This document shows positions 12,570-62,807 of a stretch of DNA of 64,000 nucleotides, one piece after another; the stretch's first letter is position 1, and each line of letters starts with the position of its first letter. Made by a program: the position numbers and the translations under genes. The notes beneath the pieces were generated by a model, which worked only from the letters and a program-made list of their open reading frames with translations, was not told where the DNA came from and ran no database searches. Source of the stretch: Candidatus Micrarchaeota archaeon (GTDB taxonomy: Archaea > Micrarchaeota > Micrarchaeia > Micrarchaeales > CABMGC01); the NCBI GenBank assembly GCA_023270055.1, contig JAGDYB010000008.1, positions 3,438 to 67,437 of the forward strand, read 5' to 3'.

Positions 12570-12666
12570 GGGCTCTTAGCTCAACGGTAGAGCGTCCGCT
12601 TTGCAGGCGGAAGGTTGCGGGTTCGAATTTGGCTTCTGCGAGGCCACGAAAATCCCGCAGAGTCCA
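12570..12666 (+). tRNA. tRNA-Ala(UGC) with a ~25-nt non-canonical intron in the T-arm (12629-12653)
   Basis: Fold: GGGCTCT TA GCTC AACGGTA GAGC G TCCGC TTTGCAG GCGGA AGGTT GCGGG TTCGAAT [TTGGCTTCTGCGAGGCCACGAAAAT] CCCGC AGAGTCC A. It has the G3:U70 alanine identity pair. The cloverleaf closes only if the bracketed insert is removed. A TTTATAA box lies about 30 nt upstream. No CCA is encoded. Confidence 0.85.
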
Positions 12667-12892: not shown

Positions 12893-14152
12893 ATGGTTTG
12901 CATGATCGGCGTAGGCATACTCTTCATAGCAATAGCTGCAATAGCCTTCTTGGGATTTGTCATAAACGCACTTTTCGAGAGGTTGAAATTTACAGATGTG
13001 CTTCCACTCATGCTCATAGGCCTGCTCATAGGTCCGCTGCTGCATCTTGTCAACGTGAGCCCGACAAGCACCGTAGCAGAGCTTACGCCGTACGTCACCG
13101 CAATCGCAATAGCTTTCGTTCTTTTCAACATAGGCATGAACATAAAGGCGAAGGAACTGAGCAAGGTTTTCGGAAGGGCAAGTGCCTTCACATTCGCAGT
13201 GCAAATAGCTATAGGCATTACGCTTGCTATAGCCACCTTTTTCATATTCAAATGGAGCCTGATAGAAGCCTTCATTTTCGGCTTTGCGGTTTCGGGGCCC
13301 AGCACAATAATAGTGCCGGTGCTTGCTAGCGTGGTCAGGGTGCCAAATAAACTAAAGGTATCGCTTGTGTACGAGAGCGTGATAACTGACATAGCCGAGC
13401 TTATCGTGCCCATACTACTGCTTGGCTTCATGATAAATTCAAGCATAATAAATGCCACATACATAGGCTCCTTCGTCTTCACAGTGATATTCGGTTCAAT
13501 ACTTATAGGTTTTCTTTCGGCACTTTTCTGGCTTTACATAATGAACAGGTTCAAGGACTACAGCCGCGGATACAGCTGGGTTCTTACTATGACAATGGTC
13601 ATCGCGACATACGGCATTGCGCAGCAGTTTGGGCTGAACGGCGCAATAACAATATTTGTCTTCGGCCTTCTGTTCTACAACATAGGTGCGAGGGAAAAGA
13701 AATCCATGAAAAGCAAGGACATACTTGGCAAGTACTTTGCGATAGATGGCGACGTTGACCATGTCATTAAATACCAGAGGGAAGTTGTATTCTTCGTTAG
13801 CACATTCTTCTTCGTCTACATCGGTCTTCTTTTCAATGTGCAGCAGGCGACGCTGTTCAGCATAGGCATCGCCGCATTACTCTCCGTTGCGATAGTTCCT
13901 ATGCGCGCCTTATTCACTCCTATATTGGGCAAGTTTATGTCAGAAGGCGGAATAAGGCGAAAGGTGGAGCGCCGTCTGGTAAGTTTCGACATGGCAAGGG
14001 GTCTTTCCCCAGCTATAGTTGCCACATTGCCACTCAGCATGGGAATAAACATACCCTATTTTGTCGATTTGATATTCATGCTCATACTCTTTACCAACAT
14101 TATATCAAGCGTAGGCATTGCCTATTCTTACAAGCCCAAAGTGTACAAGTAG
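12893..14152 (+). CDS. Cation/proton antiporter (Na+/H+ exchanger family)
   Basis: 419 aa with about 11-12 TM helices. The N-terminus ...IAFLGFVINALFERLKFTDVLPLMLIGLLIGP is typical of CPA-type exchangers. Confidence 0.8.
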   Translation: MVCMIGVGILFIAIAAIAFLGFVINALFERLKFTDVLPLMLIGLLIGPLLHLVNVSPTSTVAELTPYVTAIAIAFVLFNIGMNIKAKELSKVFGRASAFTFAVQIAIGITLAIATFFIFKWSLIEAFIFGFAVSGPSTIIVPVLASVVRVPNKLKVSLVYESVITDIAELIVPILLLGFMINSSIINATYIGSFVFTVIFGSILIGFLSALFWLYIMNRFKDYSRGYSWVLTMTMVIATYGIAQQFGLNGAITIFVFGLLFYNIGAREKKSMKSKDILGKYFAIDGDVDHVIKYQREVVFFVSTFFFVYIGLLFNVQQATLFSIGIAALLSVAIVPMRALFTPILGKFMSEGGIRRKVERRLVSFDMARGLSPAIVATLPLSMGINIPYFVDLIFMLILFTNIISSVGIAYSYKPKVYK

Positions 14153-14184
14153 CCCAATACCTTGGCCACCGCAGCGCGAAAATG

Positions 14185-14297
14185 CGCCGGAGCTGGGATT
14201 TTCAGCATGCGCATTTGAACCCAGATTGCCAAAAGGCAACCAGATCTCGAGTTTCGCCAAAAATTACTGGCGCGTTACCTGGTTCCGCCACTCCGGC
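14185..14297 (-). tRNA. tRNA-Ser(CGA), class II, with two non-canonical introns (14253-14266 in the anticodon stem; 14198-14212 in the T-arm)
   Basis: The reverse strand folds as GCCGGAG TG GCG GAACCAGGTAA CGC G CCAG[TAATTTTTGGCGAA]A CTCGAGA TCTGG TTGCCTTTTGGCAA T CTGGG TTCAAAT [GCGCATGCTGAAAAT] CCCAG CTCCGGC G. It has a perfect 7-bp acceptor stem, a G73 discriminator and a long variable-arm hairpin. TATAAAA lies about 30 nt upstream. The listed ORFs 14118-14429 and 14182-14448 are spurious. Confidence 0.8.
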
Positions 14298-14483
14298 ACA
14301 AATACATCTGTCTATGAATTATTTTATACTTATCTATGCCTGCGCCAGCGTGGACTCATCAATTCGGCCGCCTGTGCTTCGGTATATACTAGTGCCGCTA
14401 AATTGCAAAATCCTATCAACGCAACCTAACAAATATAAAAGTTTTTAAATAAGATATTCCTATAAAAGATAGATGGTATTTCT

Positions 14484-16019
14484 ATGAGTGGTTCCAGCTA
14501 TGCGCTAAGGGTAACCATATTCGTGTTTGTGGTTGCCGTTTCGGCGTTGAGCGTAGGCATCTCCGTATACTTTATCTCAATGTCATACAACCTCTACATG
14601 CTGGTAGTTTCACTGCTTTTCCTAATACTTTCGCTTATAGCCTCGATATTTAACATCATAGCTGCATTCTGGTATTACAACTCTTATTTCTACAAGAGCA
14701 AATACACCTACGCTGCCTCAAGAAACAAGAGGTTGGATTACTATCCGACCGTGGCAATCGCGGTACCAACCTACAATGAGCCTGCTTCAGAAGTCATATC
14801 CACAATGGAAAAGGCTAAGAGGATCAAGTATCCGCGCAACAGGATAAACTTTTACCTTCTTGATGATTCGACAAACGAGGAGATAGCGTCAAAGCTGTCC
14901 AAATACGCTTCTGAGAGTGGCGTAAATTACATACACCGCGACAACAGGAAAGGCTTCAAGGCGGGTGCACTCAACAATCTCCTCAGGCAGAGCAGCGAGG
15001 AGTTTATAGCAATATTTGACGCGGACGAGTATCTTACCAACAGGAACTTCCTGATTGAGCTTTTGCCCATATTCAATGACAAGGACATTGCCTATGTGCA
15101 AACCGAGAAAAGATATGCGAAAAACAACCTGTTTTCGAACGCGGTTGACATGATGTTCGCATTCTTCTTCAAATTCGCGCAGACGTCGAGAGCAATGCGC
15201 GACACGGCAAACTTTGCGGGTTCATGCGCAATAGTAAGGAAGGATGCGCTGCTGAAAATAGGCGGCTTTCCTGAACATGTGCTCGAAGATACGTTCCTGT
15301 CATTCGAAATGAAAAACAACAACTTCAAGGGAGTTTATATACACAAGAACTATGCATTGGGCAGGCCCATGAACAAGTTCATTGCCTTTGCGAGGCAACA
15401 GTGGAGATACAACTACGGAGGCACGGAATTTCTATACCACTACCTGAAAACAAAAAAGGAATATAAGGCAAACACCATGTCTAAGCTGGACTACATAAGC
15501 CACGGCTTCGGCCTAAACTACATTTCCATAATTCTTATATTGTTCACAATACTTTCCGTGCTCATAACCTTTGGCGGATTTCCGTTTGCCCACGCTTCGG
15601 TGAGCCAGCTGCTAAGCGCCAATTACATAAACGAATTTTTTGAGCTAGGCCTTCTCACAACCCTAGTTATTTTCATCGCGCCGCTGCTGCTTTCCAAGAT
15701 ATATTTCAATTCTTTCAAATCCGGAATAATGGTTTACATACTGAACTTTTCCGTTGCGTTCATAAGGGCAAAGGCAGCTGTGCAAGCCACGCTTGGCCTC
15801 AAGCCTAAGAATCTGTGGGCAAAAGGCAATCTGGGCACGAGGCGTGGTGCGTTCCTGTTTGCGCTTAAAAACTCCGTTGCGGAGGTATCTTTTTCGACTG
15901 TGCTCTTCGCATTTTCGGTATTTGCCATAGCAAACAGCAATTTCTCTGGCGGCATCTGGCTGTTGTGGTACAGTCTGCTGTACGGCTCCACATTCGTTTT
16001 CTTCTACAAATACCGGTAA
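14484..16019 (+). CDS. Membrane-integrated processive family-2 glycosyltransferase (cellulose/chitin/hyaluronan-synthase-like)
   Basis: Two N-terminal TM helices, a GT2 core with LLDDS, FDADE and LEDTF, a Q-x-x-R-W signature (ARQQWRYNYG), then 4-5 C-terminal TM helices. Confidence 0.8.
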   Translation: MSGSSYALRVTIFVFVVAVSALSVGISVYFISMSYNLYMLVVSLLFLILSLIASIFNIIAAFWYYNSYFYKSKYTYAASRNKRLDYYPTVAIAVPTYNEPASEVISTMEKAKRIKYPRNRINFYLLDDSTNEEIASKLSKYASESGVNYIHRDNRKGFKAGALNNLLRQSSEEFIAIFDADEYLTNRNFLIELLPIFNDKDIAYVQTEKRYAKNNLFSNAVDMMFAFFFKFAQTSRAMRDTANFAGSCAIVRKDALLKIGGFPEHVLEDTFLSFEMKNNNFKGVYIHKNYALGRPMNKFIAFARQQWRYNYGGTEFLYHYLKTKKEYKANTMSKLDYISHGFGLNYISIILILFTILSVLITFGGFPFAHASVSQLLSANYINEFFELGLLTTLVIFIAPLLLSKIYFNSFKSGIMVYILNFSVAFIRAKAAVQATLGLKPKNLWAKGNLGTRRGAFLFALKNSVAEVSFSTVLFAFSVFAIANSNFSGGIWLLWYSLLYGSTFVFFYKYR

Positions 16020-47601: not shown

Positions 47602-47675
47602 GGGGAGCTCTGCTAGCTTGGTTAGGCTTCCAGGTTCGGGACCTGGCGACCCGTGTTCAAATCACGGGCTCCCCG
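47602..47675 (+). tRNA. tRNA-Pro(CGG)
   Basis: Fold: GGGGAGC TC TGCT AGCTTGGTTA GGCT T CCAGG TTCGGGA CCTGG CGAC CCGTG TTCAAAT CACGG GCTCCCC G. The acceptor, anticodon and T arms are perfect and the D-stem is weak (3 bp). It is followed by CTTTTTT and starts 2 nt after the peptidase stop. Confidence 0.85.
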
Positions 47676-47722
47676 CTTTTTTCGCTCTTCTTGTGTAGTA
47701 GCAGGCGGAGTGGGCGAATAAG

Positions 47723-62664: not shown

Positions 62665-62807
62665 GGGGTTGTAGCGTAACCTGGCAGCGCAGCAGGCTCC
62701 AGATGTTTTAAAATGTTATGAGCCAAGTGCGATGATGAGGATTTGGAGCGGTGATTCGTGATATCAGGCGTTACCTGCTGGTCGGGGTTCAAATCCCCGC
62801 AACCCCA
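62665..62807 (+). tRNA. tRNA-Trp(CCA) with ~70-nt anticodon-loop intron (about 62703-62772) carrying box C/D guide elements
   Basis: Fold: GGGGTTG TA GCGT AACCTGGCA GCGC A GCAGG CTCCAG [intron] A CCTGC TGGT CGGGG TTCAAAT CCCCG CAACCCC A. The intron contains ATGATGA (62732-62738), the 12-nt spacer GGATTTGGAGCG, GTGA (62751-62754) and GTGATA. The ORF listed at 62643-62936 is spurious. Confidence 0.88.

Follow-up and report, generated by a model that had tools for sequence, protein, structure and literature searches.

A tRNA-Ser(CGA) gene with introns at positions 30/31 and 59/60 in a micrarchaeal genome that encodes a three-unit splicing endonuclease

The minus strand at positions 14297..14185 of the window (the whole 64,000-nucleotide stretch of DNA analysed here) very probably carries the single functional tRNA-Ser(CGA) gene of a hot-spring Micrarchaeota archaeon, with two introns, which would be cut out by the EndA endonuclease of this genome and whose flanking exons would be joined by RtcB. 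The gene is 113 nt long with its introns and 84 nt long when spliced, and CCA is not encoded. On the minus strand, 14297..14185 reads GCCGGAGTGGCGGAACCAGGTAACGCGCCAG-[TAATTTTTGGCGAA]-ACTCGAGATCTGGTTGCCTTTTGGCAATCTGGGTTCAAA-[TGCGCATGCTGAAAA]-TCCCAGCTCCGGCG, where the inner brackets mark the introns. Exon 1 (14267..14297, minus strand; tRNA positions 1-30) supplies the 5' strand of the acceptor stem, the D-arm and the 5' strand of the anticodon stem as far as G30. It is followed at 30/31 by intron 1, the 14-nt TAATTTTTGGCGAA (14253..14266, minus strand), which has a relaxed, BHL-like bulge-helix-bulge (BHB) motif. Exon 2 (14214..14252, minus strand; positions 31-59) holds the anticodon loop, the 3' strand of the anticodon stem, the variable arm, the 5' strand of the T-stem and the T-loop from U54 to A59; the anticodon CGA lies at 14249..14247 (minus strand) within the loop CTCGAGA. 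Intron 2, the 15-nt TGCGCATGCTGAAAA (14199..14213, minus strand), sits at 59/60 with a strict hBHBh' motif. Exon 3 (14185..14198, minus strand; positions 60-73) contributes U60, the 3' strands of the T-stem and acceptor stem, and the discriminator G73.

Once spliced, the tRNA has the acceptor stem GCCGGAG/CTCCGGC followed by the discriminator G73, a D-stem of 3 bp, the anticodon stem CCAGA/TCTGG around the loop CTCGAGA, the variable arm TTGCC-TTTT-GGCAA and the T-arm CTGGG-TTCAAAT-CCCAG. On a second reading of the minus strand, sequence, strand, coordinates and cloverleaf features all agreed with the original prediction, which had been made from the DNA alone. Its flanks are two plus-strand genes, for a Na+/H+ exchanger (12893-14152) and a GT2 glycosyltransferase (14484-16019), which leave 331 bp between them; no homing-endonuclease gene lies beside it. 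A TATA-box-like TATAAAAT (14321..14328, minus strand), with its midpoint about 28 nt upstream from the 5' end of the mature tRNA, is a putative archaeal promoter. A TTTT run (14179..14182, minus strand) that begins 3 nt past the discriminator may serve as an archaeal oligo-T termination signal; both elements were read from the sequence.

Would standard tools report this gene? ARAGORN found nothing on the full 113-nt gene and made no Ser call when just one insert was removed; with or without its intron option, the unspliced gene was invisible to it. Removal of both inserts gave the 84-nt sequence, which ARAGORN calls as tRNA-Ser(cga). The Rfam model RF00005 gave no match to the gene at its gathering score, nor in the whole genome at E<=1, nor at E<=10 within positions 14100-14400 (301 bases). 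With ARAGORN and RF00005 both silent on the native sequence, the expectation that default finders would miss the gene held. So did the warning that spurious ORFs cover it: three mechanical ORFs overlap the gene, at 14118-14429 and 14182-14448 on the plus strand and at 14105-14260 on the minus strand.

For the comparative analysis, orthologous loci were gathered by sequence similarity, not structure, in a DNA search over 60 related genomes, one per species, from families f1 (the window's own), f2 and f3 of one order. Of 48 loci fetched, 44 were parsed, the window's own included: 30 from f1 and 14 from f3. All 44 orthologues retain the same exons. Among the 39 distinct spliced sequences, 98.7% of the cloverleaf cells are paired, as against 23-50% when the partners are slid by 1-3 columns; the parser accepted only loci whose acceptor, anticodon and T stems pair throughout and so slightly favours the paired percentage, and the variable stem was left unfiltered. 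Both-side, compensatory changes occur in 10 of the 24 cloverleaf pairs, and none of 500 shuffles of these 39 sequences reached the observed covariation. Conservation of the exons and of the cloverleaf is far beyond chance, and the comparison indicates that the exons are under strong purifying selection.

Membership of the class II tRNA-Ser family is clear in these 39 orthologues. The 7-bp acceptor, 5-bp anticodon and 5-bp T stems, the three on which the parser insisted, are 100% paired and carry compensatory changes. The 4-bp variable stem is also 100% paired, with three of its four pairs covarying, and G73 is invariant. A long variable arm and the discriminator G73 are the identity elements of SerRS. 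The locus is confirmed as an archaeal class II tRNA-Ser(CGA): the assignment had been proposed for the form lacking both inserts, and it is upheld by the ARAGORN call on the 84-nt form together with the orthologue cloverleaf. Serine charging and decoding of UCG are predicted from the CGA anticodon and from UCG usage; UCG accounts for 11.9 per 1000 codons in long ORFs, and UCA is equally common.

The inserts themselves come and go among the relatives. Insert 1 is present in 43 of the 44 parsed orthologues (30/30 in f1, 13/14 in f3) and in two unparsed loci, one at a contig end (G036) and one at a scaffold gap (G039). It is missing, with the exact junction GCGCCAG|ACTCGAGA, in G051, and it is also missing in the f2 genome G037; CCAG|A is uninterrupted in both. 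Insert 2 occurs in 24 of 30 f1 orthologues and in none of the 14 from f3; the 20 genomes without it (14 f3 and 6 f1) have an intact T-arm, for example TTGGG-TTCAAAT-CCCAA. Because the inserts are naturally present in some relatives and absent from others, both exon-junction pairs are fixed. We conclude that the inserts are introns, as had been proposed, since orthologues lacking them show exactly the predicted junctions (G051 and G037 for insert 1, the 20 genomes for insert 2). The lengths of the inserts in the relatives range from 11 to 30 nt for insert 1 and from 11 to 40 nt for insert 2, in 39 and 24 distinct versions, respectively. G051 (locus L051) is the sole f3 genome with a wholly intron-less tRNA-Ser(CGA).

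What enzymes might process such a transcript? The genome's sole tRNA-intron endonuclease frame is a 397-aa EndA (G000:C10:3938-5083, minus strand) with two tRNA_int_endo_N and two to three tRNA_int_endo Pfam matches. In a phmmer search it aligned over its full length with residues 5-387 of PDB 4fz2_A (E 7.6e-155); the next PDB matches were ordinary EndAs at about 1e-22, with one unit covered. The protein fits the three-unit layout, a single polypeptide with alphaN, alpha and betaC units. In the alignment with 4fz2, the equivalents of the catalytic residues Y236, H251 and K282 and of K161 in the specificity loop (GSYK) are conserved; the numbering is that of the ARMAN-2 enzyme after Hirata et al. 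2012 (PMC3488258). The original prediction had named two types of endonuclease that could serve introns of this kind, and the end-to-end match of the only EndA with 4FZ2 identifies the three-unit ARMAN type. Full-length EndA homologues (open frames of 382-481 aa) are present in 60 of 61 related genomes, and the relatives of this EndA that have names come from MAGs of Candidatus Micrarchaeota and Micrarchaeaceae. Of the full-length EndAs in the related genomes, that of G051 (G051:C1:264151-265272) diverges most, at 45% identity. An RtcB ligase is encoded at C1:32657-33961 (548 bits).

In vitro, a strict 37/38 intron and a relaxed 59/60 intron of 13 nt are each cleaved by the ARMAN-2 enzyme (PMC3239211), which needs a loop lysine to cut the relaxed one (PMC3488258; PMC12397907). 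By analogy with that enzyme (PMC3239211, PMC3488258), the EndA described here would form a homodimer and cleave relaxed substrates.

In the canonical archaeal BHB, a 4-bp helix lies between two 3-nt bulges, and on either strand the cut follows the second nucleotide of the bulge (PMC3239211). BHB-type motifs in this cleavage register can be drawn at both junctions, strict at intron 2 and relaxed at intron 1. At intron 1, the exonic C25-G26-C27-C28 (14272..14269) pairs with the intronic GGCG (14258..14255). The 3' bulge, AA|A31, is in the canonical register (GGCG, two intron nucleotides, exon), and the 5' site, A29-G30|U, lies within a 10-nt terminal loop. Both the MFE and the centroid folds of the precursor hold this CGCC/GGCG helix. 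Intron 1 hence has the core of a relaxed BHB/BHL (hBH-type) motif: a 4-bp helix, one 3-nt bulge and the other site in a loop. Its outer helix consists of G24-C32 alone or, in the MFE fold, of C23-G35 and G24-C34 with a 5-nt bulge, and the exon bases concerned are invariant. In most genomes the inner part is 4-9 nt long, too short for a helix; in the intron of the window it forms at best two A-U pairs. The precursor MFE also offers an outer helix in which the D-loop sequence ACCAGGU pairs with AUCUGGU of the 3' strand of the anticodon stem. We rejected this pairing as chance because the D-loop varies among the orthologues (TCAGG, ACCGG, ACTGG, TCCGG) and the partner is invariant.

Intron 1 ends in GGCGAA in 42 of 43 orthologues (GGCGAG once), and its interior comprises 38 distinct sequences. 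A 3' end that is kept while the remaining intron varies is the expected signature of a recognition element. By simple arithmetic, a 4-nt Watson-Crick match at one fixed register would arise by chance about once in 256. Covariation is limited to intron 2 of one genome (G028), with none for intron 1, because tRNA function fixes the exon-side partners of the helices. Retention of intron 1 across the order with a near-invariant GGCGAA could mean that it is kept for a non-neutral reason.

Is the CGCC/GGCG helix alone sufficient for recognition of intron 1? Even with a real gene and an intron 2 that EndA cuts in the ordinary way, cleavage at 30/31 might rely on another conformer, on the context of the mature domain (for instance, the D-stem stacked on the central helix where an outer helix would be), on a set order of removal or on a helper factor. 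The outer helix has only one or two base pairs, and the 11-16-nt versions of the intron have no usable inner helix. With the outer helix almost absent and at most two inner A-U pairs, intron 1 is more relaxed than the tested ARMAN-2 hBH substrate. Tests of the ARMAN-2 enzyme covered only the strict 37/38 intron and the hBH 59/60 intron, the latter with the T-stem as outer helix (PMC3239211), and co-crystals of that enzyme with relaxed substrates were not obtained (PMC12397907). However, GGCGAA stands in the exact canonical register in 42 of 43 genomes, as direct BHB-type recognition predicts, and the 30-nt intron 1 of G054 contains an extra 7-bp inner hairpin, TATAACA/TGTTATA, with which a fuller BHB can form. 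We therefore regard dependence on such additional features as unlikely and favor direct recognition of the relaxed motif.

Intron 2 has the full geometry. Its outer helix h is the 5-bp T-stem CUGGG/CCCAG, and in its central helix the exonic UUCA of U54-A57 (14219..14216) pairs with the intronic UGAA (14204..14201). Both bulges read AA|U, and the inner helix h', GC/GC, closes the loop GCAU. With a 4-bp central helix, two 3-nt bulges, and h and h' each of >=2 bp, the motif is a strict hBHBh'. The central helix keeps all four pairs in 22 of 24 orthologous introns, and in G028 it shows the compensatory change UUCG/CGAA. In longer orthologous introns, h' grows to 4-13 bp, a hairpin flush with the bulges. 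Of the ViennaRNA folds, we counted those in which the BHB arose in the free MFE; G035 and G013 are among the genomes whose unconstrained MFE fold is the canonical motif. Long introns 2 of 36-40 nt (L032 in G026, L030 in G011, L039 in G027, L019 in G014 and L026 in G023) contain a hairpin and a repeat of one of its strands. In G026 this reads AAGCTTTTGG-AAAAAGCTT-AACCAAAAGCT; the feature is absent from the 15-nt intron of the window.

The exact position of intron 2 required more than the sequence. AAAT is repeated at both junctions, so that an insert at 60/61 yields the same mature product as one at 59/60, and five cut registers, from 56/57 to 60/61, are equivalent in sequence. The original prediction was right about a 15-nt insert in the T-arm; its placement at 60/61 did not stand and is refined to 59/60 by the BHB rule. 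The intron could in principle be cut at 60/61 or at another of the equivalent registers, outside the canonical bulge register, and in sequence these look alike. Yet 59/60 is the sole register in which both cuts fall after the second nucleotide of 3-nt bulges around UUCA/UGAA, atop the T-stem. It fits 22 of the 24 orthologous introns, even those with bulges other than AAU (AA|A, AT|U, UC|U, AG|U), and it is also the position reported for ARMAN-2 (PMC3239211). A cut in any other register is thus very improbable. Sequence itself cannot separate 59/60 from 60/61, and it is the BHB rule that places intron 2 at 59/60.

Together, these observations suggest the following pathway. Transcription would yield a precursor of 113 nt plus leader and trailer, with two introns. 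A homodimeric three-unit epsilon2 EndA would cut each intron at the two bulges of its BHB motif. For intron 2 (59/60) this would be the strict hBHBh' built on the T-stem. For intron 1 (30/31), the helix between C25-C28 and GGCG would direct the 3' cut to the AA|A bulge and the 5' cut (AG|U) to the terminal loop, making it the type of substrate predicted to require the broad-specificity loop of the epsilon2 enzyme. RtcB would then join the exons, and CCA would be added post-transcriptionally. The data show the gene, its exon junctions, their conservation and covariation, the geometry of the motifs and the presence of both enzymes; that the precursor is in fact cleaved and ligated, the order of these steps, and the sites of promoter and terminator are inferred.

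Does the genome possess another gene for this tRNA? ARAGORN, Rfam and BLAST revealed no second tRNA-Ser(CGA) in the assembly, and at its completeness of 84% the gene is probably the sole copy. A BLAST query with the spliced sequence hit its own three exon blocks and nothing else in the genome. In its intron mode, ARAGORN labels C7:40393-40500 as 'tRNA-Ser(cga)'. That candidate is class I: its variable loop is short and its discriminator is U. We read it as tRNA-Thr(CGT) with a canonical 37/38 intron and not as another Ser(CGA) copy. The original prediction was to be abandoned if no BHB could be drawn and an intact second tRNA-Ser(CGA) existed; instead, motifs can be drawn at both junctions and the assembly holds no other copy. 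All runs holding the locus are DNA runs from hot-spring metagenomes, with no RNA run among them. That the locus is a decaying tRNA pseudogene with two insertions, with UCG read by tRNA-Ser(UGA), is scarcely credible: the standard finders are silent on it, no RNA run holds it and a tRNA-Ser(TGA) gene is present at C17:18684-18788, but the 39 distinct orthologues show purifying selection and compensatory stem changes, the insertions are exactly bounded and their splice motif is kept in two families, the assembly has no other Ser(CGA) gene, and numerous other tRNA genes of the genome are interrupted likewise.

Those other genes extend the picture. Across 766 kb, ARAGORN lists only 22 tRNAs without an interruption. 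Scanning for the strict motif at 59/60 added tRNA-Ala(UGC), tRNA-Ala(GGC), tRNA-Arg(UCU), tRNA-Arg(CCU), tRNA-Ser(GGA) and probably tRNA-Cys(GCA). The tRNA-Ala(UGC) gene, with G3:U70, lies in the window at 12570-12666 (plus strand) and has at 59/60 a strict BHB intron of 25 nt, GCGGG-TTCG-AA|T-TTGGCTTCTGCGAGGCCA-CGAA-AA|T-CCCGC; the Rfam match to it covers model positions 8-63 only, with 31.5 bits. The intron of tRNA-Ala(GGC), at G000:C12:38410, is homologous to that of tRNA-Ala(UGC). tRNA-Ser(GGA) (G000:C10:88115-88229, plus strand) has two introns, one of 14 nt in the anticodon-loop region and one of 15 nt at 59/60, and is reported by neither ARAGORN nor Rfam. Further disrupted loci (Arg, Thr, Leu, Cys) are at G000:C3:31235, C10:65417, C12:1222, C1:32191 and C1:~9475. 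Among individual genes, tRNA-Arg(CCU) and tRNA-Arg(UCU) have 15-nt introns at 59/60, tRNA-Thr(GGU) a 15-nt D-loop intron and tRNA-Leu(CAA) a relaxed T-loop intron; the T-loop intron of the probable tRNA-Cys(GCA) resembles the ARMAN-2 substrate.

Two more tRNA genes of the window deserve mention. At 62665-62807 (plus strand), tRNA-Trp(CCA) carries a 70-nt anticodon-loop intron in which a C-box-like AUGAUGA occurs; other archaea have a tRNA-Trp intron that is a box C/D guide RNA. At 47602-47676 (plus strand), ARAGORN calls a tRNA-Pro(CGG) that Rfam matches with 23 bits over model positions 10-63 and whose D-arm looks irregular. The tRNA-Pro(CGG) of ARMAN-2 has a D-arm that contains just one Watson-Crick pair (Fujishima 2011, PMC3239211).

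T-loop introns of unrelated tRNAs share a 3' end of the form (U/C)GAA-NN. This is not evidence of shared descent, because the intron must complement U54-U55-C56-R57 and then supply two bulge nucleotides. Where, then, did intron 2 of tRNA-Ser(CGA) come from? In every one of the 29 genomes parsed from the two families, tRNA-Ser(GGA) has a 59/60 intron, with the conserved form (A/U)-GC-N4-8-GC-UGAA-(U/A)A; the 59/60 intron of tRNA-Ser(CGA) is confined to f1 (24/30, against 0/14 in f3). The window's TGCGCATGCTGAAAA matches the Ser(GGA) intron of G028 at every position and that of G022 at all but 2 of 15. The identity with G028 is not compelling, because only about four positions are free given the GC/GC helix and it is one of some 300 comparisons. 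Most long f1 Ser(CGA) introns 2 look related to one another (TAAG-YTTCC...) and unlike the GC...GC form, and within G000, G016, G022 or G028 the T-loop introns of the two isoacceptors show no sign of having evolved in concert. We can propose only tentatively that the Ser(CGA) 59/60 intron might be a datable gain, copied from the isoacceptor Ser(GGA) by T-arm recombination or intron transposition; as an account of its origin, this is possible but doubtful.

For this genome, the gene fills a hole in the decoding table: the tRNA cognate to UCG is otherwise left unannotated by default finders and covered by spurious ORFs. The 44 orthologues, among which each of the two introns is either present or precisely absent, form a comparative resource. 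The set displays the constraints of the epsilon2 system, namely GGCGAA for 30/31 and UGAA plus two nucleotides for 59/60, with the rest free. As a natural substrate with almost no outer helix, intron 1 would be a useful test RNA for the limits of relaxed specificity. Position 30/31 is among the catalogued crenarchaeal intron positions.

Disrupted tRNA genes cut by a three-unit enzyme were described for ARMAN-2 in 2011 (PMC3239211), and the two-intron tRNA-Ser is a new, well-supported example of a phenomenon already described for the lineage, not a new kind of element. The mechanism, as predicted from sequence, is the known protein-catalysed tRNA splicing of archaea, and the picture of ARMAN-2 drawn in 2011-2012 and in 2025 is left unchanged. 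The ARMAN-2 cases (PMC3239211) come from the same phylum and involve the same type of endonuclease; both organisms have short introns at non-canonical positions, 59/60 included, genes with more than one intron, and a mix of strict and relaxed BHB motifs. Set against those cases, as far as the available portions of that account extend, what differs here is the tRNA, Ser(CGA), and the position pair, 30/31 with 59/60. In outer helix, the 30/31 motif is poorer still than the hBH substrate on which the ARMAN-2 enzyme was tested (PMC3239211). The epsilon2 EndA of ARMAN-2 (Candidatus Micrarchaeum acidiphilum; PDB 4FZ2, 9W2K; PMC3488258, PMC12397907) has the same alphaN-alpha-betaC layout, catalytic Tyr/His/Lys and loop Lys, but the specificity loop reads GSYKAADR here and GTYKVSEH in ARMAN-2, and K241 of ARMAN-2 aligns with Q. 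The Thermoproteales (Crenarchaeota) likewise combine multi-intron tRNAs, interrupted at non-canonical positions, with a broad-specificity enzyme, and they have up to three introns per tRNA and relaxed HBh'/hBH motifs (PMC3239211). Their (alpha-beta)2 endonuclease, however, belongs to another phylum and has a convergently evolved architecture, unlike the epsilon2 form found here.
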